Assembly (NCBI RefSeq): GCF_025526975.1
Contig: NW_026515690.1
Coordinates: 496,001 to 521,734 of the forward strand
Direction of reading: 5' to 3'
DNA from: Fimicolochytrium jonesii
Taxonomy: Eukaryota
DNA length: 25,734 nt
Below are positions 3,012 to 25,734 of the stretch, in pieces. A program made the position numbers and the translations under genes. Below the pieces are notes generated by a model that saw nothing but the letters and a program-made list of their open reading frames with translations, was not told the origin of the DNA and searched no databases. The number at the start of each line of letters is the position of its first letter. Within the stretch, counting starts at the first letter, position 1.

Positions 3012-3351
3012 CAGGGTGGGCGGAAAGACATAGAGGCCAGGGCGTTGTGTGCAAGCGAGCAGAGCGTTGCCGAGAAGTCCTGGATGTGAAATGGGGATGC
3101 AGGAGGCTCCAGAGACTTGAAAACTGGCCATATATCCACTGCTACTCCCGAGGTCACTGTCAGTAGCATCCTACCCTAAAGAACCCACCCTAAAGAACCC
3201 TAAAGAACTGAACAAAAGCATCGGGGTCCATGGCGATTCGGGCATCGGCAGCGCTACTAACGATCGAGCAGGTGAATGACTTGCCTCCATTTAAGTCGCC
3301 AATGGGTGACACTATCATCAACTCCGGGGCTTTCATACGCTCAGACACGTA

Positions 3352-3869
3352 CAGTACCCTGGCAAAAGTTTTGGGAACGCACGCGTTTCAATTATAAACA
3401 ATTAGAATAATCGCTTACCGAAGGGCTCTAATTGACAACCATGCATACTGGACTTTAGCGCATGGGAGTGATACGGTCGGATTGTCCAGAAGCAGGAGCA
3501 TACTCAATCTACATAGTAGTCAAGTCTGAAAACAATCTACATAGTAGTCAAGTCTGAAAACTGTCTGGTTGTCAACTTATTGTCCGTTGAAGTCGGAAGA
3601 GCCGTCCTCCCATAATTGATTTTCAGGTCCAATTAGAGAAAAAACTTAAACCAATCTTCTCCATGGTATCCTGCCCAAACCTACTTGACAAAGCGCATGG
3701 CCAGTTATAAGGAAAACAAGCGGATCAACAGGAAGCTTATATTTGTCTCTATGGGCGGATTTAAGTTTAGTGCATAATTGTGAACTTTACCCAGTAGCAA
3801 AAGAAGACGGATTTTCTAATTGTTTGTAATTGAAACGCGTGCATCCCAAAAACTTTTGTCAGGGTACTG
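3352..3869. mobile_element. Non-autonomous Tc1/mariner-type MITE, 518 bp
   Basis: About 56-bp imperfect TIRs (CAGTACCCTGGCAAAAGTTTTGGGAACGCACGCGTTTCAATT... and ...AATTGAAACGCGTGCATCCCAAAAACTTTTGTCAGGGTACTG) flanked by TA at 3350-3351 and 3870-3871. AT-rich interior, no ORF. Confidence 0.9.
3505..3560. repeat. 28-bp perfect tandem duplication inside the MITE
   Basis: CAATCTACATAGTAGTCAAGTCTGAAAA x2. Confidence 0.95.
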
Positions 3870-3871
3870 TA

Positions 3872-4482: not shown

Positions 4483-4922
4483 ATACGAACGACGTGACGT
4501 GGCTTCACAAGTGTCCCCAAATTCATTTCCCGCCCTCAGCTCGCCCCCGACAAAGTAAGCATAACCGAGAAGAGCCCACTCCCGGATTGCACAGCAGGGA
4601 ACTAGAAAACTTGCCGAGCCGGTATTGGCAACAGGGCAATGACAAACCTATGGACAGTGATTAGAGTAGATGAGAGGAAACTGCTTGATAAATTTACGGT
4701 CAAAGGAAACTCGCACACACTCAGCATACCATAATAGAGCGAGGAAAAACAGCTCACTGCTCGCACATTGACGGGAGACGCGCTGTCGGAACTGATGCCG
4801 AGAGGAAGGAAGGAAGGAAGGCCGTTTTTGCCTCCTAAAGGGTATATCGCCAACGCGAGGGTGAGACCATAAACTGGATAAGCGGCAAAGTGGAACTATA
4901 TATATACTGTATACAGTACGTA

Positions 4923-6301
4923 CAGCCAATGGACATAAACCTGTGCACCCCCTCTAATCGAATTCAATGACCGTTTCACAAGCGGATGCGCGTTCCATCC
5001 AGCCTGCCTCCGGACAAGCCAGGATCTTACCGACATGCCCGCAATTGCGACCTCCATCTTCATCCCCTGCTATGGGCAAACCACTCTCCCCTCAGCAGAG
5101 GGCTGCCATAGTGGCGCTGCACAGGTCAGGCAAGAACAAGCGACAAATAGCTGCACAGGAGGGGGTTGCATTCAGGACTGTTCAGTATACTATCAAGAAG
5201 TTTGCTGCTGAATCTGCGGACAGCCCACCGTCCTATCAGTCAAAAAAGCCACCGGGAAGACCAGCTAAGTATCAACCAGAGGACGGTGACTTGGAGGAGT
5301 TCCGCAGACTTGTTCTCTCAGATATTCAGACACGAGAAAAGACATTAAAACAAATTCGGTTGGAACTCATCCCTCTTACAGGTATCACGGCATGCGAAAA
5401 GACAGTGCGTCCTTACCTTCACAAACTCCTCCATTTGACCTCCCGCTTCAAAATCCACAAGCCGTTTTTGTCTGACAAGCACAAAGCAGCACGCCTTGCG
5501 TTTGCGTTGGAACATCAGCACTGGACAGTTGCGGATTGGTCACGGGTTGTGTGGACGGATGAGACGTCTTTTGATATTGGCTGGGTTCCCAAAATGCGAT
5601 GTTGGCGTCTGCGAACTGAACATTTTCACCCTGACTGTATCAGAGGCACTCGACGTAGCGGATGCAAAACATTTATGTATTGGGGAGCATTTATTGGAAA
5701 CGCTGTTGGTCCGTTGACGCAGGTCCAGCCGGTTCAGCGTGAGGGCCAAGTTTGCGGTAGGGGTATCAATTCCACTGCTTACGTTCAGCATTTAACCGCT
5801 CATCTTTTGCCAATGTGGCAAAACCTTGAGATTTTTGTTCCCAACCTCCTTTTCATGCAGGACAACGCCCCTATCCACACTTCTGCCAAAACGCGCCAAT
5901 TCTTTGCGGAGCATGGCATCAACATCATGCCGTAGCCAGCGCAGAGCCCCGATCTCAACCCAATTGAAAACCTCTGGGCGATTGTCAAGCGGGAGGTATC
6001 GCGGGCTAATGCAAATGCAGATGGTGTTGTGCAGCAGGTGTGGCCAACAGTGGAAAGGCATTTGGATAACCTAGTTGGATCGATGCCGACAAGGATGCAG
6101 GCAGTCATTGTTGCAAACGGAGGAACGACACGGTATTAATAAGGGTATTAGGCAGGAACCGAAGTCTAGATTTCATCTAGATTAGGTTCCTTATTGATCC
6201 CCGAGACTAAGGATGATGAGTCCGCGTCTAAATCAGTTGCGGCAACGCGACCGGTCACTGACTTAGTCTCAAGGGGTGCACAGCTTTATGTCCGTTGGCT
6301 G
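4923..6301 (+). mobile_element. Full-length Tc1/mariner DNA transposon, 1379 bp
   Basis: 29-bp TIRs CAGCCAATGGACATAAACCTGTGCACCCC (4923-4951) and GGGGTGCACAGCTTTATGTCCGTTGGCTG (6273-6301), 2 mismatches. TA duplication at 4921-4922 and 6302-6303. Internal transposase frame. Confidence 0.96.
5072..6139 (+). pseudogene. Tc1-family DD34E transposase with one premature stop
   Basis: N-terminal HTH region and PPGRP motif; catalytic WTDE, QDNAPIH and SPDLNPIE with 34 residues between the second D and the E. The conserved W of WPAQSPDLNPIEN is TAG (5933-5935); the frame continues to TAA at 6137-6139. Confidence 0.93.
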
Positions 6302-6574
6302 TACAGTGGATTTCCGAAAAGGTGGTTCAGCAGTACTGTATTGCTACCACGTACACTGGGAGCCTCTCACTGATCGCTATGTCCTTGAACTTGAAACCTA
6401 CCTCACCTCGTTCCCAATGCCTGCCACTCCCACACCCCTTTGTGGGAGAATCGGAAGCTGAACTTCATAGAAATGCTGGAAAGGATGCGGGTTAGGCCTA
6501 GGGTTGGACCATGCATAAGGTTAAACCAGGTCGAGGTCGGACCAGCTCTCCGTCGGTGCTACTTACCCCAGAAC

Positions 6575-6650
6575 GGTTAGGGTTAGGGTCAAGGACGATC
6601 GGCCTTGAATTCTCGAAGACGTGCAGATCTAGGGTTAGGGTTAGGGTTAG
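6575..6650 (+). repeat. Short interstitial TTAGGG tracts
   Basis: GGTTAGGGTTAGGGT at 6575-6589 and TAGGGTTAGGGTTAGGGTTAG at 6630-6650, same polarity as the terminal array. Confidence 0.8.
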
Positions 6651-7409
6651 CTCGGCGAAAGCGTCAAGGGGAGGGGGGGTTAATTCAGTACATCAGTGGC
6701 CGGCATTGAATGCTCAAAACCGACGTCGTTCCATGTTCTCGTCAGGGTCGCGAGGTTGCGTGGTTCAGAGTGAGCTTGGAAAGACCCCTGAGTTTGTTGA
6801 ACAATAACAACTACGTACAAAGGAAGTCCATTATTTTCCAATGCTCCGCGAGATGAAGGAGACCTTAACCAGGGCCCATTAGCACTGCAGTTGCAAAAAT
6901 CGCATTTCCGCCGCATCAAATACTTCCTCCGATGATTCTGTGGTTCGCTCTCATTACACTTTCGGTCAAATGGACATTCTGGGCTAGATGAATACTGTGT
7001 ATTGCTATTGGTTCCATTCACTTTGAATTTGAGAGGCAACTGACCGGCGTGAGGAGCGCCATGAGAACCCTGGCATTCACCAGTATTCCGTTTTTCTTCG
7101 GAAAAATATGATTCCGAACGCCAAAGGGTTAGCTTAGCTCGGCGTGAGAGGTCAGTTGAGGAAGGATGTTTATGGTCTCCGCTACTCTTTCGTGTGAAGC
7201 AAACTGTCCATGTTCGATCGAGTGCCAATCCCGCCAACAGTCAATGTGCTCTCATACGCGCCATGCCGTCACTTCCAGGGTTTCTCGCTTGGACACAACG
7301 AGATGACTGTTGATGTCGCATGCAGTCTCTACAAAACGACTCCTCACGGAATGGTCTATCCTCCTGTGCAACTACAAGCATATATTAACTTATTTCAAAC
7401 GGTGTCAGT

Positions 7410-11111: not shown

Positions 11112-11123
11112 TTAGGGTTAGGG

Positions 11124-11164
<41 letters not shown>

Positions 11165-11404
11165 GGTTAGGGTTAGGGTTAGGGTTAGGGTTAGGGTTAG
11201 GGTTAGGGTTAGGGTTAGGGGTTAGGGTTAGGGTTAGGGTTAGGGTTAGGGTTAGGGTTAGGGTTAGGGTTAGGGTTAGGGTTAGGGTTAGGGTTAGGGT
11301 TAGGGTTAGGGTTAGGGTTAGGTATAGGGTTAGGGTTAGGGTTAGGGTTAGGGTTAGGGTTAGGGTTAGGGTTAGGGTTAGGGTTAGGGTTAGGGTTAGG
11401 GTTA
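11112..11404 (+). repeat. Telomeric (TTAGGG)n tract 1, the innermost
   Basis: About 290 bp of TTAGGG with a few variant units. Confidence 0.99.
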
Positions 11405-12443
11405 CAAGACCCCCTGGGTTGGGTTTTATTTTTGGGTTGCCTGGAACCCTAGGGACTTAGAAATTTTCGGGTTTTTTGGCTTTTGGGTGTGTTCTACAGT
11501 TCAAATTCTTGACTCTGAGGGGTGTGGTGGCGGGGGGTGTTGCGCACCTAGGCAAGTCAGGGGGGACTAGGTGTGCAAGGGCAAGTGATGGGTCATATGG
11601 GTGGTGGTGCGGGTACGGGGGGGGGGGCAGGGGTGCCAATAGGGGAGGGGGGGGGGTTGATATAAAGGGGAAATATATGTTATATATACGTTATAGGACT
11701 TGTGCAAATTGGGATTTTTTTAGTGCCGATCTGGAGTTGGCGTCCTAATTAAAAGTTGGCCCCATATCATATTCTCTAATTGAAGTACTCTCGGATTGGC
11801 AATCCGTGCGGAAACGGCTTCAGAAACTTAGAAAAACGAAATTTTCACGCGACGGGGGGTAAAAAGTTGGAAAATGTGGTGATATCTCAACATCTGGCTG
11901 ACTATCCAGTGGAGGGCACTTAATGAAAGTTGATTGTAGCCTATGGTTTGCATAGCTGATGTGGTAGCAAATCTTGTGTAACCTTGCTTTTGGCTGAAGA
12001 ACAGGGCCCCTTTTCAATTCTCAAGTAGTGACCCCCAAGACCTCCTAACAAAAGACACGAGTACGTATGTGCAGGCAAAGGGGTTTGGCTGTGTTCTCCA
12101 GTAAACATTTTGTGATTCCGCTGTGCATCGTAGACTGTTTGTAGGACCGTTGCGGAATGTCATTTACCAAAACTGTTGAACATTTTCCGTTTAAAGCAGT
12201 GTTCTACAGTTTGTCCATGCAGGTTAGAGCACGTGACCTGGGCTTGCTTGCAGGGTATGCAGAGTGAGAGGGTTGGGGTTAGAGATTTCCCAGATCACTT
12301 ATTAAATTCAGCCAAACTGTCTCTGTCATGGAACATTTAAAATGGTGGAAAGTAGTATTGCATTTATTGATTTAGAGTACATTGGAAAAGCGCACATTCA
12401 GAAAAGGGTTTTGGTGTAAAGTTATCAACGACATTCAACAGTA

Positions 12444-14012
12444 CTAAAGGACTTCCGCAAGCATGTCACGGACTTGGTTCTGTCCAAAAGTCGTACGGCA
12501 CTCAGGGTACCTGGCGCAGCGGAGACGGAAACGATGCTGACCGCCAATGCTATGAAAAGCTGAGCCTCCACAGTTGGGACATTGAAGCTGATCACGATGC
12601 TGATGGAAGAGTTCACGGATATTGCCAATGGGAGCAGCATCAGGCACTTCCCCATCCCCATGACCCCACCAAGCACGAGCAGGATCAATGACGGGTGCAA
12701 TGCCTTTGAACCATCCGGGATTGAAACCAAAAGAGTTGAGAACATCTCGGAAGCGCTGACAGTCTGTCACAGTAGTCTGTCTATTGCGATCTCCTCTGAA
12801 TAGAACTCTGGTGGCAGCGTCCATGATGCCATTGATGAGACTGTAGTACTCTTCCACCGGCACAAGCTTCAAGGAGTTTGCGCCCATGTGCTGGAAAATG
12901 GTCTCGATCTGGTCCAAATGGAGATTCAAAACCATCTGTTCCGCTGATTCCAACCTGGCGCACTGAACTCGCACTTCAACTCGCATGCCAGTAATGTGGA
13001 GCGGGTGACCGTTGAGCCATTGACGTAAACCTCTCAGTGTCTCACTGCGATCACCAAGGCTGGACTTGGTTTGGGGCATTCGCGAAGACAAAGTCGAAGA
13101 GTAGGCTTTGAGCGCATGAACAAGCTTTGGGTAGCAAGTAACCCGAACATTGGCGTGACCCGCAATGTCAAAGCGGGTGGACCCAAATCCCTCACCAAGG
13201 ATGGTGAGCATGGGAAAGGTGGCTCCAACTCCACGTCCATTGTAGCAAACCAAAGGAATGACACCACGAGTGTTGAATGTCTGACCAATGTCCCATGTGT
13301 TGAGTGCAGCATCGGGATGGTTGCTCACTTCCTGGTCAAAGGAGTAGGCTGGCAAAGTCTGAATGCGTTGCTTCATTCCATACTGCACAATGCGTACAGA
13401 GGGTGACACAGCACCAATGATGTCCTGGAACCCAGACATCAACAGATTTTGCCGCCCAGCAATCAATCGTGAGTGATCCGTGCTTTCCCTCACGATGATC
13501 GAATGTTCATTGTGAAGTAACTCAAGAATCCTTGCCTTCGACTCTGGATTGAATGGAATGCTAATGACACAAGGTCTGCTAGCGATCCGCATCCAACCGG
13601 CGAAAGCTTCACTGTCCTTGATATGCTGCATCACTCCAGACAGTTCAACCAAGGTGAAGGCACCAAAGAGGGTGGTCAGCTTTGTGGTAGGGAGCGTAAA
13701 GGCCATCCAGTCCACATCAAAGTAGCCAGTACTGCGGAAGACCCCAAACTGCTCATCCTGAAGGGCAGGAGAGCGATGGTGTTCCTCATGTGAAGAGCTT
13801 GAGCGAGAAGTTGGCAACTCGATGTCCTCACGCCCCTCATCACTATGATGATGAGGGTTGGAGCTGTGTGAACCAGAAATGGACAACTCCACATCCAAAC
13901 TGCCGATGCTGGATGAGGTCTGGGAGATTTCGACCTGAAGGCTGGTGTTCGACATGGATGAGGTAAGGCTCGACGGCGAAAGGGTGTTGTTGGTGAATGC
14001 GGTGAAAGGCAT
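12444..14012 (-). CDS. Family A protein, 522 aa: Ser-rich N-terminus, putative Rep_trans/gpII-like nickase core, C-terminal topoisomerase-type C4 zinc ribbon
   Basis: Intronless ORF kept open in three copies, with a paralog in family B. Motifs DVDWMAFT, QYGMK, WDIG, TCYPK, GMRVEVR and CPNC-x17-CARYPEC. The CDS is well supported; the function is inference. Confidence 0.85.
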   Translation of the reverse strand: MPFTAFTNNTLSPSSLTSSMSNTSLQVEISQTSSSIGSLDVELSISGSHSSNPHHHSDEGREDIELPTSRSSSSHEEHHRSPALQDEQFGVFRSTGYFDVDWMAFTLPTTKLTTLFGAFTLVELSGVMQHIKDSEAFAGWMRIASRPCVISIPFNPESKARILELLHNEHSIIVRESTDHSRLIAGRQNLLMSGFQDIIGAVSPSVRIVQYGMKQRIQTLPAYSFDQEVSNHPDAALNTWDIGQTFNTRGVIPLVCYNGRGVGATFPMLTILGEGFGSTRFDIAGHANVRVTCYPKLVHALKAYSSTLSSRMPQTKSSLGDRSETLRGLRQWLNGHPLHITGMRVEVRVQCARLESAEQMVLNLHLDQIETIFQHMGANSLKLVPVEEYYSLINGIMDAATRVLFRGDRNRQTTVTDCQRFRDVLNSFGFNPGWFKGIAPVIDPARAWWGHGDGEVPDAAPIGNIRELFHQHRDQLQCPNCGGSAFHSIGGQHRFRLRCARYPECRTTFGQNQVRDMLAEVL

Positions 14013-14165
14013 GGTGTTGGCCCTGGTGTTGGCGATGGTATTGGTGTCGGTATTGGCGTAGGTGCTGAAATGTGGTGGTGGTGCGTGCTTTTGGAGGGAG
14101 GGAATCTGAACAGCCCTCTCCTTTTATAAAAGTCTGGCCAAAGGCAACCTGGAGCTGTTCTTCAG

Positions 14166-14338
14166 TTTTTTTCTGCAACCCTACCTTTTTTTTTTCCTAA
14201 CTTTTTTTTTCCCCTTTTTTGTTTTCACTACTCCTTTTTTTTCGTGACTTTTTTTTTTCACTACTCCTTTTTTTTTTTCGGACTTTTTTTTTTTCCACTA
14301 ATCCTTTTTTTTTCGACTTTTTTTTTTCACTAAACTTT
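14166..14338. repeat. T-rich tandem repeat in family A
   Basis: Units of about 32-37 bp, CACTA(C/A)TCC-Tn-CG(N)GAC-Tn, starting at 14226, 14259, 14296 and a partial unit at 14328. Confidence 0.85.
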
Positions 14339-14413
14339 TTAGGGTTAGGGTTAGGGTTAGGGTTAGGGTTAGGGTTAGGGTTAGGGTTAGGGTTAGGGTT
14401 AGGGTTAGGGTTA
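14339..14413 (+). repeat. Telomeric tract 2
   Basis: (TTAGGG)n between A1 and A2. Confidence 0.99.
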
Positions 14414-17217
14414 CAAGACCCCCTGGGTTGGGTTTTATTTTTGGGTTGCCTGGAACCCTAGGGACTTAGAAATTTTCGGGTTTTTTGGCTTTTGGGTGTG
14501 TTCTACAGTTCAAATTCTTGACTCTGAGGGGTGTGGTGGCGGGGGGTGTTGCGCACCTAGGCAAGTCAGGGGGGACTAGGTGTGCAAGGGCAAGTGATGG
14601 GTCATATGGGTGGTGGTGCGGGTACGGGGGGGGGGGGCAGGGGTGCCAATAGGGGAGGGGGGGGGGTTGATATAAAGGGGAAATATATGTTATATATACG
14701 TTATAGGACTTGTGCAAATTGGGATTTTTTTAGTGCCGATCTGGAGTTGGCGTCCTAATTAAAAGTTGGCCCCATATCATATTCTCTAATTGAAGTACTC
14801 TCGGATTGGCAATCCGTGCGGAAACGGCTTCAGAAACTTAGAAAAACGAAATTTTCACGCGACGGGGGGTAAAAAGTTGGAAAATGTGGTGATATCTCAA
14901 CATCTGGCTGACTATCCAGTGGAGGGCACTTAATGAAAGTTGATTGTAGCCTATGGTTTGCATAGCTGATGTGGTAGCAAATCTTGTGTAACCTTGCTTT
15001 TGGCTGAAGAACAGGGCCCCTTTTCAATTCTCAAGTAGTGACCCCCAAGACCTCCTAACAAAAGACACGAGTATGTATGTGCAGGCAAAGGGGTTTGGCT
15101 GTGTTCTCCAGTAAGCATTTTGTGATTCCGCTGTGCATCGTAGACTGTTTGTAGGACCGTTGCGGAATGTCATTTACCAAAACTGTTGAACATTTTCCGT
15201 TTAAAGCAGTGTTCTACAGTTTGTCCATGCAGGTTAGAGCACGTGACCTGGGCTTGCTTGCAGGGTATGCAGAGTGAGAGGGTTGGGGTTAGAGATTTCC
15301 CAGATCACTTATTAAATTCAGCCAAACTGTCTCTGTCATGGAACATTTAAAATGGTGGAAAGTAGTATTGCATTTATTGATTTAGAGTACATTGGAAAAG
15401 CGCACATTCAGAAAAGGGTTTTGGTGTAAAGTTATCAACGACATTCAACAGTACTAAAGGACTTCCGCAAGCATGTCACGGACTTGGTTCTGTCCAAAAG
15501 TCGTACGGCACTCAGGGTACCTGGCGCAGCGGAGACGGAAACGATGCTGACCGCCAATGCTATGAAAAGCTGAGCCTCCACAGTTGGGACATTGAAGCTG
15601 ATCACGATGCTGATGGAAGAGTTCACGGATATTGCCAATGGGAGCAGCATCAGGCACTTCCCCATCCCCATGACCCCACCAAGCACGAGCAGGATCAATG
15701 ACGGGTGCAATGCCTTTGAACCATCCGGGATTGAAACCAAAAGAGTTGAGAACATCTCGGAAGCGCTGACAGTCTGTCACAGTAGTCTGTCTATTGCGAT
15801 CTCCTCTGAATAGAACTCTGGTGGCAGCGTCCATGATGCCATTGATGAGACTGTAGTACTCTTCCACCGGCACAAGCTTCAAGGAGTTTGCGCCCATGTG
15901 CTGGAAAATGGTCTCGATCTGATCCAAATGGAGATTCAAAACCATCTGTTCCGCTGATTCCAACCTGGCGCACTGAACTCGCACTTCAACTCGCATGCCA
16001 GTAATGTGGAGCGGGTGACCGTTGAGCCATTGACGTAAACCTCTCAGTGTCTCACTGCGATCACCAAGGCTGGACTTGGTTTGGGGCATTCGCGAAGACA
16101 AAGTCGAAGAGTAGGCTTTGAGCGCATGAACAAGCTTTGGGTAGCAAGTAACCCGAACATTGGCGTGACCCGCAATGTCAAAGCGGGTGGACCCAAATCC
16201 CTCACCAAGGATGGTGAGCATGGGAAAGGTGGCTCCAACTCCACGTCCATTGTAGCAAACCAAAGGAATGACACCACGAGTGTTGAATGTCTGACCAATG
16301 TCCCATGTGTTGAGTGCAGCATCGGGATGGTTGCTCACTTCCTGGTCAAAGGAGTAGGCTGGCAAAGTCTGAATGCGTTGCTTCATTCCATACTGCACAA
16401 TGCGTACAGAGGGTGACACAGCACCAATGATGTCCTGGAACCCAGACATCAACAGATTTTGCCGCCCAGCAATCAATCGTGAGTGATCCGTGCTTTCCCT
16501 CACGATGATCGAATGTTCATTGTGAAGTAACTCAAGAATCCTTGCCTTCGACTCTGGATTGAATGGAATGCTAATGACACAAGGTCTGCTAGCGATCCGC
16601 ATCCAACCGGCGAAAGCTTCACTGTCCTTGATATGCTGCATCACTCCAGACAGTTCAACCAAGGTGAAGGCACCAAAGAGGGTGGTCAGCTTTGTGGTAG
16701 GGAGCGTAAAGGCCATCCAGTCCACATCAAAGTAGCCAGTACTGCGGAAGACCCCAAACTGCTCATCCTGAAGGGCAGGAGAGCGATGGTGTTCCTCATG
16801 TGAAGAGCTTGAGCGAGAAGTTGGCAACTCGATGTCCTCACGCCCCTCATCACTATGATGATGAGGGTTGGAGCTGTGTGAACCAGAAATGGACAACTCC
16901 ACATCCAAACTGCCGATGCTGGATGAGGTCTGGGAGATTTCGACCTGAAGGCTGGTGTTCGACATGGATGAGGTAAGGCTCGACGGCGAAAGGGTGTTGT
17001 TGGTGAATGCGGTGAAAGGCATGGTGTTGGCCCTGGTGTTGGCAATGGTATTGGTGTCGGTATTGGCGTAGGTGCTGAAACGTGGTGGTGGTGCGTGCTT
17101 TTGGAGGGAGGGAATCTGAACAGCCCTCTCCTTTTCTAAAAGTCTGGCCAAAGGCAACCTGGAGCTGTTCTTCAGTTTTTTTCTGCAACCCTACCTTTTT
17201 TTTTTCCTAACTTTTTT
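14414..17217 (-). mobile_element. Family A copy 2 (2804 bp)
   Basis: Near-identical to A1 (offset 3009-3010, few substitutions). Same start junction; ends earlier inside the T-rich tract. Confidence 0.9.
15454..17022 (-). CDS. Family A protein, copy 2 (522 aa from the ATG equivalent to copy 1)
   Basis: Translation matches A1 from MPFTAF to the stop. The ORF-track extension to 17157 uses a non-ATG start. Confidence 0.85.
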   Translation of the reverse strand: MPFTAFTNNTLSPSSLTSSMSNTSLQVEISQTSSSIGSLDVELSISGSHSSNPHHHSDEGREDIELPTSRSSSSHEEHHRSPALQDEQFGVFRSTGYFDVDWMAFTLPTTKLTTLFGAFTLVELSGVMQHIKDSEAFAGWMRIASRPCVISIPFNPESKARILELLHNEHSIIVRESTDHSRLIAGRQNLLMSGFQDIIGAVSPSVRIVQYGMKQRIQTLPAYSFDQEVSNHPDAALNTWDIGQTFNTRGVIPLVCYNGRGVGATFPMLTILGEGFGSTRFDIAGHANVRVTCYPKLVHALKAYSSTLSSRMPQTKSSLGDRSETLRGLRQWLNGHPLHITGMRVEVRVQCARLESAEQMVLNLHLDQIETIFQHMGANSLKLVPVEEYYSLINGIMDAATRVLFRGDRNRQTTVTDCQRFRDVLNSFGFNPGWFKGIAPVIDPARAWWGHGDGEVPDAAPIGNIRELFHQHRDQLQCPNCGGSAFHSIGGQHRFRLRCARYPECRTTFGQNQVRDMLAEVL

Positions 17218-17352
17218 TTAGGGTTAGGGTTAGGGTTAGGGTTAGGGTTAGGGTTAGGGTTAGGGTTAGGGTTAGGGTTAGGGTTAGGGTTAGGGTTAGG
17301 GTTAGGGTTAGGGTTAGGGTTAGGGTTAGGGTTAGGGTTAGGGTTAGGGTTA
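17218..17352 (+). repeat. Telomeric tract 3
   Basis: (TTAGGG)n between A2 and B1. Confidence 0.99.
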
Positions 17353-19530
17353 CAGGACTGTTCCGGGTTATGGGTTATTTTTGGTGGTCCGGAAAGTGTC
17401 AAAAATAGGTGCTAGCAATGTTCAGGGGCGTCTTACTGTACTGTACATAAAATTGTGGGGCATGTTTTCCACTCAATGCTCCCGGAAAATCCGTTTTTCA
17501 GATTTTTTACTATGAAAATGTGACCAAAACGCATTTTCTGAAGCTCTGAGTGGATGGAATTTGCTTGAAGTGGAATATGTCTCAGAAAACATCCCCAAAA
17601 ACATCTAGGAACCTTCATCTACTCTAGTATTCATCAACTCCTGGCACTTTTTGTTTCCAGGCAATATGGGGGTGTTCTCCAGTTGGTGGCGAATGGCTCA
17701 TTTTGGTTTGCTCTCAATTTGCTACATGTTCAAATCCTTTTGAGGCCCAAATACTTTCTTTTCTTCCACTGCTCCTCCTGATGGTGGAGGATGGCAAATG
17801 CCTTTTTGCATTGCAATACATGGATATGACAGGGTGTTTGTCAACCAGCAAATCATGCAAAAAGCATGCAGTGCATGTCCGTTTGCATGCACTATGTCAT
17901 CCGCACCACCTTGGACACCTGAGGAAAGTTGTGCGGATTTGAAAGATAATATAGTTACGGAAGTGGAACCAGGGAGATTCAATGACTATTGAAGGAGCTA
18001 TGGCACACGTAAGTCCCCAGGGGTGGGACTTAGAGAATTTTCAAAGATTTTGGTGACTCATGGCGCAGGTTTGATTCTCAGAGGGGGCCAGGCCTTCTTT
18101 TCTTTTTTTCCTCCTTCAAAATGTCTTTAAATACGTCTAGCATTGCTTGACAGTGTCAGGAAACAATCAAAAAGCTGAGAAGTGCAGGTAAAAAGTGTTT
18201 TTGGCCGATCTACAAGCAAAACATGCGAAAAACCGGCGGTGCGTGTCCATTCGCATGCACTACATCATCCGTTCCACCTTGGCCATCCAAGGCAATGGTG
18301 CGGATTCAAAAGATAGTATAGGTACGGAAGGGAAACCAGGGAGATTCAATCACTATTGACAGAGCTATGGCACCCGCAAGCTCCAATGGGTGGGACTTAG
18401 AGAATTTTCGAAAATTTTGCATTTTGCGCCGTCTGGTTGACCTGACCAAACACAGGTAACATTCTACCGACAGACATTGGCATAGTGGCAAGTGCTAATG
18501 TTATCTGAACTAGTGCCCCAAGTTCCAACCCCGGTTTTGCTGGGGATACTTTTTTTTTTCTTTTTCCCGCGCCACCCGAAACACGATGTGGGCGTAACGA
18601 AAGTTGTAGCCAGATATATGTTCTCATAGTTAAAGTCATCTCAGATGTGCAATTAAGCTGTAAACGGCTGCAGAAAATGCAAAAAACAAAATAGGATTGA
18701 CGCTTTTCTCAAAATCCAACACCACCTGGAATGCATTAAAGCCAGTCCATACACATGTCCTTTACCTAGGAACCCCCTACAGATGAATTCCCATAGTCCC
18801 CGGACACCCATAGCGCACTCTATACAACTCTACTATGCACGCATACTGGTTAGGGTTAGCCTGCGCCCTATCTGGCGAATACGTTTTCAATGCATTTCAT
18901 CGATGGCAAATAGCGCAGTTGCATAAGATACTCAATTCACAACCGAGGGTGCATGGTTCAAACCTTGCGTTCGACACAACAACAGAGGGATTTTTCCGGG
19001 GGCAAAATAAATATCACCATGCACCCATATCAATACGATGTGGACTGGATGGCGGTTACGATCAGTTTAACTGATCTTAACCAGCTGTTCGATAGGTCCA
19101 CCATTGTCCAAATGGCGGGCGCTCGTCCGCCGTTCAAGGATGACCCATTCTATAAGGAATGGATTACGGTTGTGAGCCAACCGTTCATACTGAGCATCCC
19201 GCCGAGTCGGGGTGTTAGAGAGGGGATCATTGAGGGATTATATAGGGACCATGGAATAATTGTGCGGGGGAGTGACAGCCCTAATAGCACGATTCAGGGC
19301 AGACAGCATGTGGCGTTGGATACCCTGATTGGGACCTTGTCGGAATGCGTTGAAGGGGGAATGGTTAGGATAGTGCAGTACGGGATGAAGGCTTACTGGG
19401 AGACCATGGCAGCGAAGGATGCGGTCTACGAGAGTTCAGGGGGCCGGTCGAATACCTTCGACATAGGATTGATGATCAGGAGCATGGATATCCCGGTGCT
19501 GAGGGGACGAGATGAGGCAGGGGATGAGGG
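17353..19530 (+). mobile_element. Telomere-embedded element, family B copy 1 (longest, about 2.18 kb)
   Basis: Starts GGGTTA|CAGGACTGTTCC. 1.6 kb non-coding arm, then a + strand ORF homologous to the A protein, cut by TTAGGG. Four shorter copies in the window. Confidence 0.88.
17847..18419. repeat. Diverged direct repeat of about 205 bp inside B1 (17847-18052 and 18215-18419)
   Basis: Shared blocks GCATGCACTA, CCACCTTGG, AACCAGGGAGATTCAAT, GAGCTATGGCAC and GGGTGGGACTTAGAGAATTTTC at a spacing of about 367 bp. Confidence 0.9.
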
Positions 19531-19534
19531 TTAG
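18953..19534 (+). pseudogene. 3'-truncated family B protein, paralog of the family A protein
   Basis: Colinear matches to A: DVDWMA.T, SIP, H.IIVR, GRQ, VRIVQYGMK, NT.DIG. The stop codon comes from the telomere repeat. Likely start ATG 19019 (CACCATG) or 18953. Confidence 0.85.
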
Positions 19535-19581
19535 GGTTAGGGTTAGGGTTAGGGTTAGGGTTAGGGTTAGGGTTAGGGTTA
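19527..19581 (+). repeat. Telomeric tract 4
   Basis: (TTAGGG)n. Confidence 0.99.
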
Positions 19582-19704
19582 CAAGACCCCCTGGGTTGGG
19601 TTTTATTTTTGGGTTGCCTGGAACCCTAGGGACTTAGAAATTTTCGGGTTTTTTGGCTTTTGGGTGTGTTCTACAGTTCAAATTCTTGACTCTGAGGGGT
19701 GTGG
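19582..19704. mobile_element. Family A copy 3 (123-bp terminal fragment)
   Basis: Matches A1 from CAAGAC to GGGGTGTGG. Confidence 0.9.
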
Positions 19705-19776
19705 GTTAGGGTTAGGGTTAGGGTTAGGGTTAGGGGTTAGGGTTAGGGTTAGGGTTAGGGTTAGGGTTTAGGGTTA
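19703..19776 (+). repeat. Telomeric tract 5
   Basis: (TTAGGG)n with variant units. Confidence 0.98.
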
Positions 19777-20068
19777 CAGGACTGTTCCCGGTTATGGGTT
19801 ATTTTTGGCCATCCAAAAAGTGTCAAATAAAGTTGCTAGCAATGTTCAGGGGCATCTTACTGTAATGTGCTTCAAATCTTGGGGCATGTTTTCCACTCAA
19901 TGCCCCGGGAAAATCTGTTTTTCCGATTTTTTACTATGAAAATATTGCCAAAATGCATTTTCTGAAACTCTGAGTGGATGGATTCCGCTTAAAGTGGAAT
20001 ATGTCTCGGAAAACATCCCCAAAAACATCTAGGAACCTTCATCTACTCTAGTATTCATCAACTCCTGG
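19777..20068. mobile_element. Family B copy 2 (292-bp terminal fragment)
   Basis: Starts CAGGACTGTTCCC and ends CAACTCCTGG, followed by a short TTAGGG tract (20067-20084). Confidence 0.9.
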
Positions 20069-20084
20069 GTTAGGGTTAGGGTTA

Positions 20085-20807
20085 CAGGACTGTTCCCGGT
20101 TATGGGTTATTTTTGGCCATCCAAAAAGTGTCAAATAAAGTTGCTAGCAATGTTCAGGGGCATCTTACAGTAATGTGCCTCAAATTTTGGGGCATGTTTT
20201 CCACTCAATGCCCCAGGAAAATCTGTTTTTCCGATTTTTTACCATGAAAATATTGCCAAAATGCATTTTCTGAAACTCTGAGTGGATGGATTTCGCTTAA
20301 AGTGAGATATGTCTCAGAAAACATCCCAAAAACATCTAGGAACCTTCATCTACTCTAGTATTCATCAACTCCTGGTACTTTTTGTTTCCAGGCAATATGG
20401 GGGTGTTCTCCAGTTGGCAGCAAATGACCCATTTTGGTTTGCTCTCAATTTGCTCCATGTTCAAATCCTTTTAAGGCCCAAATACTTTCTTTTCTTCCAT
20501 TGCTCCTCCTGTTGGTGGAGGATGGCAAATGCCTTTTTGCATTGCAATACATGGATATGACAGGGTGTTTGTCAACCAGCAAATCATGCAAAAAGCATGC
20601 AGTGCATGTCTATTTGCATGCCCTATGTCATCCGTACCACCTTGGACACCCAAGGAAAGGTATGCGGACTCAAAAGAAAATATACTTACGGAAGTGGAAC
20701 CAGGGAGATTCAATGACTATTTAACGAGCTATGGCACACGTAAGTTCCCAGGAGTGGGACTTAGCACAATTTGAGAAAACATATCAGAGGAACTGGAGAA
20801 CACACTC
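20085..20807. mobile_element. Family B copy 3 (723 bp)
   Basis: Colinear with B1 up to GGGACTTAG (20764), then 43 bp not found in B1, then a short TTAGGG tract (20808-20822). Confidence 0.9.
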
Positions 20808-20822
20808 TTAGGGTTAGGGTTA

Positions 20823-20928
20823 CAAGACCCCCTGGGTTGGGTTTTATTTTTGGGTTGCCTGGAACCCTAGGGACTTAGAAATTTTCGAGTTTTTTGGCTT
20901 TTGGGTGTGTTCTACAGTTCAAATTCTT
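20823..20928. mobile_element. Family A copy 4 (106-bp terminal fragment)
   Basis: CAAGAC to CAAATTCTT, followed by a TTAGGG tract at 20929-20985. Confidence 0.9.
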
Positions 20929-20985
20929 TTAGGGTTAGGGTTAGGGTTAGGGTTAGGGTTAGGGTTAGGGTTAGGGTTAGGGTTA

Positions 20986-23400
20986 CAAGACCCCCTGGGT
21001 TGGGTTTTATTATTGGGTTGCCTGGAACCCTAGGGACTTAGAAATTTTCGAGTTTTCTGGCTTTTGGGTGTGTTCTACAGTTCGAATTTTTGACTCTGAG
21101 GGATGTAGTGGCGGGGGGGTGTTGCGCACCTAGGCAAGTCGGGGAGGACTAGGTGTGCAAGGGCAAGTGATGGGTCATATGGGCGGTGGTGCGGGTACGG
21201 GGGGCGGCAGGGGTGCCAATAGGGGGGGGGGGGGTTGATGTAAAGGGGACATATATGTTATATATACGTTATAGGACTTGTGCAAATTGGGATTCTTATA
21301 GTGCCGATCCGGAGTTGGCGTCCTAATTGAAAAGTTGGACCCATATCATATTCTCTAATTGAAGTACTCTCGGATTGGCAATCCGTGCGGAAACGGCTTC
21401 AGAAACTTAGAAAAACGAAATTTTCACGCGACGGGGGGTAAAAAGTTGGAAAATGTGGTGATATCTCAACATCTGGCTGACTATCCAGTGTAGGGCACTT
21501 AATGAAAGTTGATTGTAGCCTATGGTTTGCATAGGCTGATGTGGTAGCAAATCTTGTGTAACCTTGCTTTTGGCTGAAGAACAGGGCCCCTTTTCAATTC
21601 TCAAGTAGTGACCCCCAAGACCTCCTAACAAAAGACACGAGTACGTATGTGCAGGCAAAGGGGTTTGGCTGTGTTCTCCAGTAAACATTTTGTGATTCCG
21701 CTGTGCATCGTAGACTGTTTGTAGGACCCTTGCGGAATGTTATTTACCAAAACTGTTGAACATTTTCCGGTTAAAGCAGTGTTCTACAGTTTGTCCATGC
21801 AGGTGAGAGCACGTGACCTGGGCTTGCTTGCAGGGTACGCAGAGTGAGAGGGTTAGGGTTAGAGATTTCCCAGATCACTTATTAAATTCAGCCAAACTGT
21901 CTCTGTCATGGAACATTTAAAATGGTGGGAAGTAGTATTGCATTTATTGATTTAGAGTACATTGGAAAAGCGCACATTCAGAAAAGGGTTTTGGTGTAAC
22001 GTTATCAACGGCATTCAACAGTACTAAAGGACTTCCGCAAGCATGTCACGGACTTGGTTCTGTCCAAAAGTCGTACGGCACTCAGGGTACCTGGCGCAGC
22101 GGAGACGGAAACGATGCTGACCGCCAATGCTATGAAAAGCTGAGCCTCCACAGTTGGGACATTGAAGCTGATCACGATGCTGATGGAAGAGTTCACGGAT
22201 ATTGCCAATGGGAGCAGCATCAGGCACTTCCCCATCCCCATGACCCCACCAAGCACGAGCAGGATCAATGACGGGTGCAATGCCTTTGAACCATCCGGGA
22301 TTGAAACCAAAAGAGTTGAGAACATCTCGGAAGCGCTGACAGTCTGTCACAGTAGTCTGTCTATTGCGATCTCCTCTGAATAGAACTCTGGTGGCAGCGT
22401 CCATGATGCCATTGATGAGACTGTAGTACTCTTCCACCGGCACAAGCTTCAAGGAGTTTGCGCCCATGTGCTGGAAAATGGTCTCGATCTGGTCCAAATG
22501 GAGATTCAAAACCATCTGTTCTGCTGATTCCAACCTGGCGCACTGAACTCGCACTTCAACTCGCATGCCAGTAATGTGGAGCGGGTGACTGTTGAGCCAT
22601 TGACGTAAACCTCTCAGTGTCTCACTGCGATCCCCAATGCTGGACTTGGTTTGGGGCATTCGCGAAGACAAAGTCGAAGAAGAGGCTTTGAGCGCATGAA
22701 CAAGCTTTGGGTAGCAAGTAACCCGAACATTGGCGTGACCCGCAATGTCAAAGCGGGTGGACCCAAATCCCTCACCAAGGATGGTGAGCATGGGAAAGGT
22801 GGCGCCAACTCCACGTCCATTGTAGCAAACCAAAGGAATGACCCCATGAGTGTTCAACGTCTGACCAATGTCCCATGTGTTCAGTGCAGCATCGGGATGG
22901 TTGCTCACTTCCTGATCAAAGGAATAAGCTGGCAAAGTCCGAATGCGTTGCTTCATTCCATACTGCACAATGCGTACAGAGGGTGACACAGCACCAATGA
23001 TGTCCTGGAACCCAGACATCAACAGATTTTGCCGCCCAGCAATCAATCGTGAGTGATCCGTGCTTTCCCTCACGATGATCGAATGTTCATTGTGAAGTAA
23101 CTCAAGAATCCTTGCCTTTGACTCTGGATTGAATGGAATGCTAATGACACAAGGTCTGCTAGCGATCCGCATCCAACCGGCGAAAGCTTCACTGTCCTTG
23201 ATATGCTGCATCACTCCAGACAGTTCAACCAAGGTGAAGGCACCAAAGAGGGTGGTCAGCTTTGTGGTAGGGAGCGTAAAGGCCATCCAGTCCACATCAA
23301 AGTAGCCAGTACTGCGAAAGACCCCAAACTGCTCATCCTGAGGGGCAGGAGAGTGATGGTGTTCCTCATCTGAAGAGCTTGAGCGAGAAGTTGGCAACTC
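20986..23400 (-). mobile_element. Family A copy 5 (2415 bp, variant subtype)
   Basis: Colinear with A1 but with more substitutions than A2. Truncated inside the ORF's Ser-rich N-terminus. Confidence 0.9.
22024..23400 (-). pseudogene. Family A ORF, 5'-truncated by telomere repeats
   Basis: Frame is open and all motifs are retained, but the first ~64 codons including the ATG are replaced by telomere repeat. Confidence 0.85.
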
Positions 23401-23490: not shown

Positions 23491-23551
23491 GGTTAGGGTT
23501 AGGGTTAGGGGTTAGGGTTAGGGTTAGGGTTAGGGTTAGGGTTTAGGGTTA
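23401..23551 (+). repeat. Telomeric tract between A5 and B4
   Basis: (TTAGGG)n with TTAGGGG and TTTAGGG variants. Confidence 0.98.
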
Positions 23552-23903
23552 CAGGACTGTTCCCGGTTATGGGTTATTTTTGGCCATCCAAAAAGTGTCA
23601 AATAAAGTTGCTAGCAATGTTCAGGGGCATCTTACTGTAATGTGCTTCAAATCTTGGGGCATGTTTTCCACTCAATGCCCCGGGAAAATCTGTTTTTCCG
23701 ATTTTTTACTATGAAAATATTGCCAAAATGCATTTTCTGAAACTCTGAGTGGATGGATTTCGCTTAAAGTGAGATATGTCTCAGAAAACATCCCCAAAAA
23801 CATCTAGGAACCTTCATCTACTCTAGTATTCATCAACTCCTGGCACTTTTTGTTTCCAGGCAATATGGGGGTGTTCTCCAGTTGGCGGCGAATGACTCAT
23901 TTT
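23552..23903. mobile_element. Family B copy 4 (352 bp), interrupted by an LTR
   Basis: B homology stops at GACTCATTTT, directly before TG at 23904. Confidence 0.88.
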
Positions 23904-24329
23904 TGCTATGATCTCGGGGACGGAGGCGGAAGCGAAGTAGAGAAGACAGGGCGAGAGTGATAGGCGACAAGAGATTTTATTGGCAAAACAAGAAACAAGG
24001 ACTAGAACAGGAGATGAGAAGAACTGGTGTTGATCTGCTGGGGAGGAAGGGAACGGACAAAGAGAGGCCGGCTATTTATAGATAGGCAACCCAGCAGATC
24101 AGAGAACTACAACAACAAGAGGGGACTGGGGGGGCATCAGCTATGCTCCTAGAGCGTGCGTGGCGAGCGTAGAGAGCATTGCTACAGCTGCTGGCTATGG
24201 GGAAGTAGTGGGGGGTGTGGAGAAGCCGAGGGGGGGATTGGCGAAATGAGAGGAGAGAGGAGGAGTGGCGATATTGCAAGAGGATTGGCAAAATGAGAGG
24301 AGAGAGGGGGAGTGGCATTGACATTGACA
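23904..24329 (-). mobile_element. Single LTR of an LTR retrotransposon, 426 bp
   Basis: Minus strand reads TGTCAATG...CATAGCA (TG..CA with imperfect inverted ends). U3-like 34-bp direct repeat (24236-24269 and 24283-24316), TATAAATA (24073-24080) and AATAAA (23976-23981) occur in canonical order. Confidence 0.75.
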
Positions 24330-24382
24330 GGGTAGGGTTAGGGTTAGGGTTAGGGTTAGGGTTAGGGTTAGGGTTAGGGTTA
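24329..24382 (+). repeat. Telomeric tract after the LTR
   Basis: AGGGTAGGG followed by (TTAGGG)n. Confidence 0.98.
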
Positions 24383-24957
24383 CAAGACCCCCTGGGTTGG
24401 GTTTTATTATTGGGTTGCCTGGAACCCTAGGGACTTAGAAATTTTCGAGTTTTCTGGCTTTTGGGTGTGTTCTACAGTTCGAATTTTTGACTCTGAGGGA
24501 GGTAGTGGCGGGGGGTATTGCGCACCTAGGCAAGTCGGGGAGGACTAGGTGTGCAAGGGCAAGTGATGGGTCATATGGGCGGTGGTGCGGGTACGGGGGG
24601 GGGGGGTTGATATAAAGGGGACATATATGTTATATATACGTTATAGGACTTGTGCAAATTGGGATTTTTCTAGTGCCGATCCGGAGTTGGCGTCCTAATT
24701 GAAAAGTTGGCCCCATATCATATTCTCTAATTGAAGTACTCTCGGATTGGCAATCCGTGCGGAAACGGCTTCAGAAACTTAGAAAAACGAAATTTTCACG
24801 CGACGGGGGGTAAAAAGTTGGAAAATGTGGTGATATCTCAACATCTGGCTGACTATCCAGTGTAGGGCACTTAATGAAAGTTGATTGTAGCCTATGGTTT
24901 GCATAGCTGATGTGGTAGCAAATCTTGTGTAACCTTGCTTTTGGCTGAAGAACAGGG
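24383..24957. mobile_element. Family A copy 6 (575 bp, A5-like subtype)
   Basis: CAAGAC to GAAGAACAGGG, with a small deletion between G-runs near 24600. Followed by a TTAGGG tract at 24954-24991. Confidence 0.9.
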
Positions 24958-24991
24958 TTAGGGTTAGGGGTTAGGGTTAGGGTTAGGGTTA

Positions 24992-25245
24992 CAGGACTGT
25001 TCCCGGTTATGGGTTATTTTTGGCCATCCAAAAAGTGTCAAATAAAGTTGCTAGCAATGTTCAGGGGCATCTTACTGTAATGTGCTTCAAATCTTGGGGC
25101 ATGTTTTCCACTCAATGCCCCGGGAAAATCTGTTTTTCCGATTTTTTACTATGAAAATATTGCCAAAATGCATTTTCTGAAACTCTGAGTGGATGGATTT
25201 CGCTTAAAGTGAGATATGTCTCAGAAAACATCCCCAAAAACATCT
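24992..25245. mobile_element. Family B copy 5 (254 bp)
   Basis: CAGGAC to AAAAACATCT, matching B4. Followed by a TTAGGG tract at 25245-25420. Confidence 0.9.
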
Positions 25246-25420
25246 TAGGGTTAGGGTTAGGTTAGGGTTAGGGTTAGGGTTAGGGTTAGGGTTAGGGTTA
25301 GGGTTAGGGTTAGGGTTAGGGTTAGGGTTAGGGTAAGGGTTAGGGTTAGGGTTAGGGTTAGGGTTAGGGTTAGGGTTAGGGTTAGGGTTAGGGTTAGGGT
25401 TAGGGTTAGGGTTAGGGTTA

Positions 25421-25476
25421 CAAGACCCCCTGGGTTGGGTTTTATTTTTGGGTTGCCTGGAACCCTAGGGACTTAG
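25421..25476. mobile_element. Family A copy 7 (56-bp terminal fragment)
   Basis: CAAGAC to GGGACTTAG. Confidence 0.88.
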
Positions 25477-25734
25477 GGTAGGGTTAGGGTTAGGGTTAGG
25501 GTTAGGGTTAGGGTTAGGGTTAGGGTTAGGGTTAGGGTTAGGGTTAGGGTTAGGGTTAGGGTTAGGGTTAGGGTTAGGGTTAGGGTTAGGGTTAGGGTTA
25601 GGGTTAGGGTTAGGGTTAGGGTTAGGGTTAGGGTTAGGGTTAGGGTTAGGGTTAGGGTTAGGGTTAGGGTTAGGGTTAGGGTTAGGGTTAGGGTTAGGGT
25701 TAGGGTTAGGGTTAGGGTGGGTTAGGGGTTAGGG
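25473..25734 (+). repeat. Terminal telomeric (TTAGGG)n array
   Basis: G-rich strand runs 5'->3' to the end of the window, as expected at a right chromosome end. Confidence 0.97.

Follow-up and report, generated by a model that had tools for sequence, protein, structure and literature searches.

Two sister families of mobile units, all sharing one polarity, at a telomere of Fimicolochytrium jonesii, with oppositely facing genes for a predicted Rep_trans-like nickase

What kind of element builds the repeated units at this fungal chromosome end, and how much can be read from the fact that the genes of its two families face opposite ways? The window, by which we mean the whole stretch of 25,734 nucleotides analysed, has the chromosome tip as its outer end, where it finishes in a TTAGGG tract. 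From position 11112 outward it holds an array of 12 units, seven of family A and five of family B, with telomere tracts between them. The two families are sisters, and their mobile units lie one after another in this fungal telomere, all with the same polarity. The features of the array are listed here, a slash marking the junction between telomere repeat and unit throughout.

11112..11403, plus strand: innermost telomere tract, between unique DNA and the array
11404..14337, minus strand: A unit 1, its far end an A/T-rich satellite
14012-12444, minus strand: ORF of A unit 1, 522 aa from the first ATG, toward the fixed end
14413..17219, minus strand: A unit 2, ORF 17022-15454, 99.8% identical to A unit 1
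17352..19528, plus strand: longest B unit, with fixed end, 1.67-kb non-coding arm and truncated ORF toward the tip
17352..17396: B fixed end, G strand GGGTT/ACAGGAC, C strand GTCCTGT/AACCC, homologous to that of A
17841..18419: two 212-nt copies, 82% alike, in the arm of B
18600..18692, plus strand: non-coding B block homologous to A 11752-11842 (73% over 95 nt, E 1.7e-7), in the same orientation despite the opposed ORFs
18848..18859, plus strand: internal telomere-like 12-mer, 159 nt before the ATG of B
19019-19528, plus strand: family B ORF, the first 170 of 523 codons of a Rep_trans-like protein, cut by telomere repeats
19529..19580, plus strand: telomere tract that caps the truncated B and carries the next unit
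19581-19704: short truncated A unit
19776-20068: short truncated B unit
20084-20807: short truncated B unit
20822-20928: short truncated A unit
20985..23400, minus strand: A unit, second variant, 5' part of the ORF lost
23551-24329: truncated B unit with LTR-like tail
24382-24957: truncated A unit
24991-25245: truncated B unit
25420-25476: truncated A unit
25477..25734, plus strand: terminal TTAGGG tract

All 12 units begin on the centromere side directly after (TTAGGG)nTT and continue with ACAAGAC in family A or ACAGGAC in family B, so that the junction keeps the single register GGGTT/ACA in every copy. A single phosphodiester pair is concerned, which reads TT^A in the G strand and T^AA in the C strand. 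Over their first 45 nt the A and B fixed ends align with a score of 27, against maxima of 15 in 2000 shuffles and 8 in 1556 windows of the arms. The outer ends stop at differing points in all 12 units and are followed by new telomere repeats, with tracts of 14-70 nt separating the short units within 19581..20928. Telomere seeds of at least 2 nt were present at five of the nine distal joints scored (p 0.13), too weak a signal for use; one further joint outside these nine, where the next repeat is degenerate, has a 4-nt seed by eye. No terminal inverted repeats were found among the A and B units of the array, and the junction, unlike the origins of Rep_trans replicons, forms no stable hairpin (z -1.2 to +1.3). 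An assembly artefact is an unlikely source of the array, since its copies carry variant-specific differences with a synonymous bias.

Some units have details of their own. A unit 1 carries, within 14012-14337, a TATA-like word about 110 nt upstream of its ATG, which is altered in unit 2. The 426-nt tail at 23904-24329 (minus strand) of one B unit has TG...CA ends, TATAAAT and AATAAA, with telomere repeats directly at its edge; it is likely an LTR inserted in B, and because this copy finishes in the segment, some truncation came after insertion. The last 36 nt of another B unit (20772-20807) contain an inverted copy of a motif present in the arms of both families, which raises the question of a template switch before healing.

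The sequence-only reading had proposed that B, at 18953..19534, encodes a paralog of the A protein in the opposite orientation. Paralogy is borne out: the five pairs of A and B motifs that it quoted are all present, and the two frames align in BLASTP with 56 of 151 residues identical (37%, E 7e-22), the alignment score of 224 lying far beyond the maximum of 56 in 1000 shuffles and the 28-38 given by the three antisense frames of B. The plus-strand ORF is real, but its limits shift. Its likely start is the ATG at 19019 rather than 18953, since P0001, a 523-aa protein of F. jonesii recorded under two adjacent locus tags, begins there and is identical in 170 of 170 residues up to 19528, and positions 19529-19534 are already added telomere repeat. 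The truncated frame contains D7, D9, K124 and D148 and is without Y197 and E249. Full-length B shares 41% identity with A over 436 columns, and the two are sisters in a FastTree of the core domains (support 0.84).

Orientation is likewise confirmed. The B ORF lies on the plus strand and those of three A copies on the minus strand; as all 12 units start after (TTAGGG)nTT on the centromere side, the A ORF points toward the fixed end and the B ORF away from it. The earlier statement that the protein is under selection also stands on a dN/dS check. Between A and B the identities by codon position are 75, 84 and 51 of 140, the third being the most diverged, and different codons are used at 35 of the 56 identical residues. 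The A copies at 14413 and 20985 differ by 12 synonymous and nine non-synonymous codons (omega ~0.22, Fisher p 0.0007).

The 45-nt ends and the block shared by the arms of A and B run the same way in both families, in spite of the opposed ORFs, so B seems to be an element of the A kind whose gene has been reversed. The change likely came about by inversion of the ORF or by a nested insertion behind an ancestral arm, and the 12-mer at 18848 is possibly a fossil junction or an inversion breakpoint. A stronger form of nesting would make the B ORF a separate unit that starts at the 12-mer, B proper then being a 1.5-kb element with no ORF. The 12-mer is about as long as the 14-nt spacers between other units, and a single B copy in the window extends into the ORF, two others having unrelated tails. 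The sequence past the 12-mer, however, is without the ACA[AG]GAC end common to A and B, and a like telomere-like motif lies inside all three long A copies (12271, 15281 and 21851); the 12-mer is moreover G-rich on the plus strand, hence the ORF would face the tip anyway. We regard a separate unit as improbable; it may be compatible with the nickase reading developed below, though the argument from orientation would change.

Word-index searches returned two or three homologs each, and a full HMM search was needed to see the family. A profile from five sequences found 494 representatives at E<=0.001, 150 of which were listed. Its hosts include chytrids, Cryptococcus, smuts and rusts, and those named among 20 homologs looked up are Tilletia indica, Ceraceosorus bombacis, Cryptococcus neoformans, Puccinia graminis, Blyttiomyces helicus and Nowakowskiella. 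Among the 64 core-spanning homologs in the 150 listed of 494, K124, D148, G183, H202, E249 and G333 are kept in all 64, D7, D9, Y197 and K205 in 63 and R247 in 62. Tyrosine 121, in the YGMK motif, was set aside as a nucleophile because it is F in six of the 64. An OTU protease domain lies C-terminal of the core in 23 of 50 mostly long homologs and in two of 50 shorter ones; no RT or helicase domain was found in either set. Pfam, PHROGs, PDB sequence and phage tblastn searches gave just weak zinc-ribbon rows or noise. The full-length B protein that had been called for exists in P0001 and has both the R-x-E (R247-x-E249) and a zinc-ribbon-like C-terminal stretch, but the likely catalytic motif is [KT]-x-Y197-P-x3-H-x2-K and not the Y-x-K expected.

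Two further observations concern single proteins. Residues ~465-523 of P0001 form a small strand-strand-helix domain that ends B and its three closest relatives, is lacking from A and gives weak VIA rows to Serrate/ARS2. In one homolog, P0115, residues 821-874 weakly match a Rap1-type Myb (E 0.002), which falls under the cut-off.

What does such a protein do? A model of the A core built from 95 sequences has pLDDT 96 and pTM 0.91. With it, Foldseek rows 1-6 are all Rep_trans structures, RepDE and RepSTK1 (4cwc, 4cwe, 4cij), the best, 4cwc, at E 9.6e-4 (prob 0.98) and the first unrelated row at E 0.45; the TM-scores of the Rep_trans rows are 0.25-0.41. In VIA the top row is RepSTK1 (4cij; rmsd 4.3, 181 aligned), followed by TBP and RepDE, at a Z of 6.5 that falls in the "common" range of that tool, with TBP less than 1 Z away. 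A weaker model of full-length B returns the same top rows as the A core. The top Atlas feature match, a G2P-type Rep (0.82), is a lead only, and the Atlas structure rows are driven by the zinc ribbon (TM<=0.21 by query). A viral fold search with the weaker model gave no rows at E<=0.001.

From these models the A/B protein is predicted to be a TBP-fold, Rep_trans-like tyrosine nickase, with D9 or D7, D148 and E249 as predicted metal ligands and Y197 as the predicted nucleophile. Rep_trans enzymes hold the metal with three acidic residues from separate strands, and their tyrosine also sits on a strand (excerpts of PMC4797284, PMC6499999 and PMC5714925). The near-invariant D, D, Y and R-x-E of the family fall on strands and follow one another as Rep_trans motifs N', I, II, III and IV do, and order and spacing agree between RepD D43, D139, G177, Y188 and E211 and family residues D9, D148, G183, Y197 and E249, an equivalence based on order and secondary structure, not superposition. 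RepSTK1 shares with the family an N-terminal VDW-x-x-V-T. Rep_trans and MOBT enzymes (RepD/RepDE, RepSTK1, RelSt3, archaeal Rep-Arvir) resemble it in the predicted TBP-like sheet, in a like succession of D, D, E and Y, which in the family model lie on separate strands, and in a junction at the T^AA bond; they nick CT'AA and bind downstream of the nick (PMC9371924 and PMC4797284, excerpts).

There are differences as well. PF02486 matches neither A, B nor any of 112 homologs, and hhalign gives the family profile a probability of 3.8%, in the wrong register, against RepD and 0.5% against RepSTK1. The RxD of motif I and the YxKxxE of motif III are absent, the family having N-x-[FWY]-D and K-x-Y-P-x3-H-x2-K instead, while R-x-E is kept. 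The A/B proteins also differ in an H-x-x-K helix after the tyrosine, a helical and W-N-x-G extension, the zinc ribbon and often OTU, and their units lie at a eukaryotic chromosome end. Searches for HUH or helicase families gave no match; one His only is invariant, and the fold rows are of Rep_trans and TBP. The lack of a link by sequence, moderate structural scores, non-canonical motifs, the missing hairpin and the absence of an encoded helicase all count against our reading. We take the protein family and its elements to be real and well conserved, and probably a new superfamily.

Our preferred reading, which we hold to be probable, is that A and B are telomere-targeted rolling-circle DNA transposons, driven by a TBP-fold tyrosine nickase and working like the telomeric Helitrons of Paramecium. 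They likely move as DNA, via rolling-circle strand transfer by their own predicted nickase. The DNA-level mechanism put forward earlier gains support in that a full-length B protein exists and its predicted fold is like that of rolling-circle initiators. The enzyme would recognise the conserved ~45 nt inside the fixed end, nick the G-rich strand at GGGTT^A and stay bound to the 5' end of the element through a phosphotyrosine, while a host polymerase and helicase would displace the nicked strand. The 3' end of a telomeric G strand (...GGGTT) would then attack the phosphotyrosine, leaving the copy joined by one end only, and copying would stop at a variable point to be capped by telomerase. Polarity would be set by a DNA end and not by a transcript, so the gene could face either way.

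Given a DNA mechanism, we lean toward this one-ended G-strand route, which is favoured by element-specific sequence downstream of the junction on the G strand and by outer ends that differ in 12 of 12 units. The fixed end is the origin in one-ended events of IS91 and Helitrons. Under the same premise, insertion of both ends into the C strand, at CCCT^AACCC and with erosion afterwards, keeps a substantial though lesser chance, and is favoured by an outer end shared between two related metagenome loci (L015 and L016) and by the exact CT^AA match. Two-ended C-strand insertion with later erosion has been proposed for the Paramecium Helitrons (PMC13085455, excerpts).

Those Helitrons are a precedent, in which fixed polarity goes with ORFs in either direction (PMC13085455, excerpts). 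They share with A and B the insertion into telomere repeats, an absolute polarity, satellites in the arms, and an ORF direction that is constant within a family and opposite between families, but carry HUH RepHel ORFs of 9-10 kb (same excerpts). The units described here are 3-6 kb long; their 1.6-kb ORF has a predicted TBP fold, and both a HUH motif and a helicase are missing.

Relatives were sought in metagenomes. Scans of metagenome and viral sequence with the A/B-clade alignment gave no matches; when a distant subfamily was used instead, 43 metagenome loci came up, many of them near-duplicates of one subfamily. Their TAACCCCC-like repeats (cf. PMC12810828, excerpts) and a CPL1-like gene hint at a Tremellales-type host. 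Nine of the 43 loci contain 12 telomere-like tracts, against 0.38 in shuffled sequence, and 11 of the 12 are C-rich on the ORF strand. A motif defined after these tracts had been viewed, T[GA]T/AAC3-6, occurs 20 times in 16 of the 43 loci, always on the ORF strand and never on the opposite one, local shuffles giving 4.6 and 3.7 (maxima 10 and 8). Eleven of these ends were aligned with those of A and B, and they share T-x-T-A-A-C-C-C exactly. Identical ends stand beside different flanks in L004 and, twice, in L035. L004, with its exact 127-nt terminal repeat, is either a circle or a tandem unit. In L015 the units follow each other in tandem with one or two spacer repeats between them, and L016 contains a complete unit bounded on each side by T^AA, within repeats that would mask a target-site duplication. 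Decayed copies lie among host genes (L024, L031, L033-L035, L040, L041), so the family is not only telomeric.

All 20 sampled ends have the A arrangement, with the ORF toward the fixed end, and none that of B. This bears on the argument that orientation independence by itself favours a DNA mechanism: the opposed ORFs are confirmed, but the argument is weaker than claimed, because there is one reversed family, none of the 20 ends (43 loci, one subfamily) is B-like, and the 12-mer at 18848 could mark nesting.

Other parts of these loci may be noted. A second co-oriented ORF with an H-x-D...H...R pattern (L002:4267-5724, L004:3581-4621, L009:943-1983, L013:408-1868) has no Pfam or PDB match; by eye the pattern resembles that of TET/JBP-type 2-oxoglutarate dioxygenases. 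Upstream of the core ORF, two C2H2-like zinc fingers (L002:45-848, L004:4653-5618, L008:745-2028) are perhaps a spliced N-terminal targeting domain. Tandem repeats of ~187 nt lie between ORF and fixed end in L001-L006 and L017-L019, comparable to the 212-nt duplication of B and to the satellites of the Paramecium Helitrons. The sole helicase-like row among the ORFs of the related loci is a weak SNF2 match in the flank of L016.

Could the units instead be made from RNA? Taken alone, the geometry of A and B is also compatible with retrotransposition, and they might derive from MoTeR2-like or Terminon-like telomeric retroelements, as non-autonomous or truncated 3' portions that an RT copies in trans, the Rep-like gene being cargo or an accessory nickase. 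The fixed inward end, truncated outward end, TTAGGG spacers and mixed arrays are MoTeR-like (PMC7367193 and PMC12857005, excerpts); Terminons are cut by telomere repeats and have Rep ORFs as accessories (PMC6431247, excerpts); and A and all 20 sampled related ends have the ORF toward the fixed end. The B ORF, however, would be antisense to such an RNA. No RT was found in the window, in 107 homologous proteins or, by Pfam, in 182 ORFs of the related loci (the 32 long ones, and 150 of the 154 that measure 125-249 aa in 34 of the 43 loci), including the apparently complete units L002, L004 and L015/L016. Across 19 ends there is no poly(A) and no hammerhead core pattern, and Rfam gave no hammerhead match at E<=5, though minimal variants could escape. 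The T[GA]T/AACCC end also travels with the protein from the chytrid into a distant subfamily, which fits a protein acting on that end. We judge a retroelement origin unlikely.

The telomeric non-LTR elements MoTeR1/MoTeR2, FoTeR and Cnl1 form head-to-tail mixed arrays with TTAGGG spacers, a fixed inner end and a truncated, healed outer end; in A and B no RT or REL endonuclease was found, and the ORF can face outward. The endonuclease-deficient Penelope-like Athena/Terminon elements share attachment to the G-rich telomere strand, outer ends cut by repeats and the possibility of Rep ORFs, whereas in A and B no RT or hammerhead core was found and the Rep-like gene is the main ORF.

That there is no transposition at all, the units spreading by recombination, break-induced replication and telomerase healing with the protein a telomere factor maintained by the host or a passenger, is very unlikely: A units 1 and 2 do form a 99.8% tandem pair, MoTeR arrays grow by such repair (PMC7367193, excerpts), the B copy with an LTR-like end tells of some truncation after insertion and the seeds at five of nine distal joints (p 0.13) would suit it, but it leaves unexplained why two diverged families, and distant fungi too, keep exactly one register and why identical ends stand beside different flanks in L004 and L035, and mobile elements are what the many paralogs, the decayed copies and the OTU fusions (in 23 of 50 long homologs) are typical of.

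How new would a rolling-circle transposon of this kind be? To our knowledge, the known eukaryotic rolling-circle transposons use HUH enzymes. The A/B family is not PF02486 by sequence and is not a HUH transposon of the Helitron or Replitron type, and its mode is likely rolling-circle-like. The Rep_trans initiator class is described as bacterial and, recently, archaeal only (PMC13107129, 2026, excerpts), and no eukaryotic Rep_trans-type transposon was found in the literature searched, which lay outside Repbase, Dfam and most subscription journals. We put at slightly better than even the case that A and B represent a third, undescribed class of eukaryotic rolling-circle elements, in chytrids and basidiomycetes, with a Rep_trans-like nickase, a telomere/T^AA match and one-ended extension of the tip, a DNA counterpart of telomeric retrotransposons. 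If true, this would place the Rep_trans-type class in eukaryotes and reveal a transposon superfamily missed by Pfam-based annotation, whose members stand as hypothetical proteins in much-studied fungi. Chromosome ends would then be lengthened and rearranged without RT, and a 360-residue sequence-specific nick-and-join enzyme would be a candidate with named candidate residues and substrate.

Elsewhere in the window, positions 4920-6304 hold a Tc1/mariner element, whose terminal inverted repeats measure 32 nt and whose transposase frame has 325 aa, and a 522-nt MITE-like element with 58-nt terminal inverted repeats lies at 3350-3871. Short internal telomere-like tracts occur at 6577-6650 and 7128-7145, TTAGCTCGGCG following two of them; they may be what is left of an earlier chromosome end, or of a third family.
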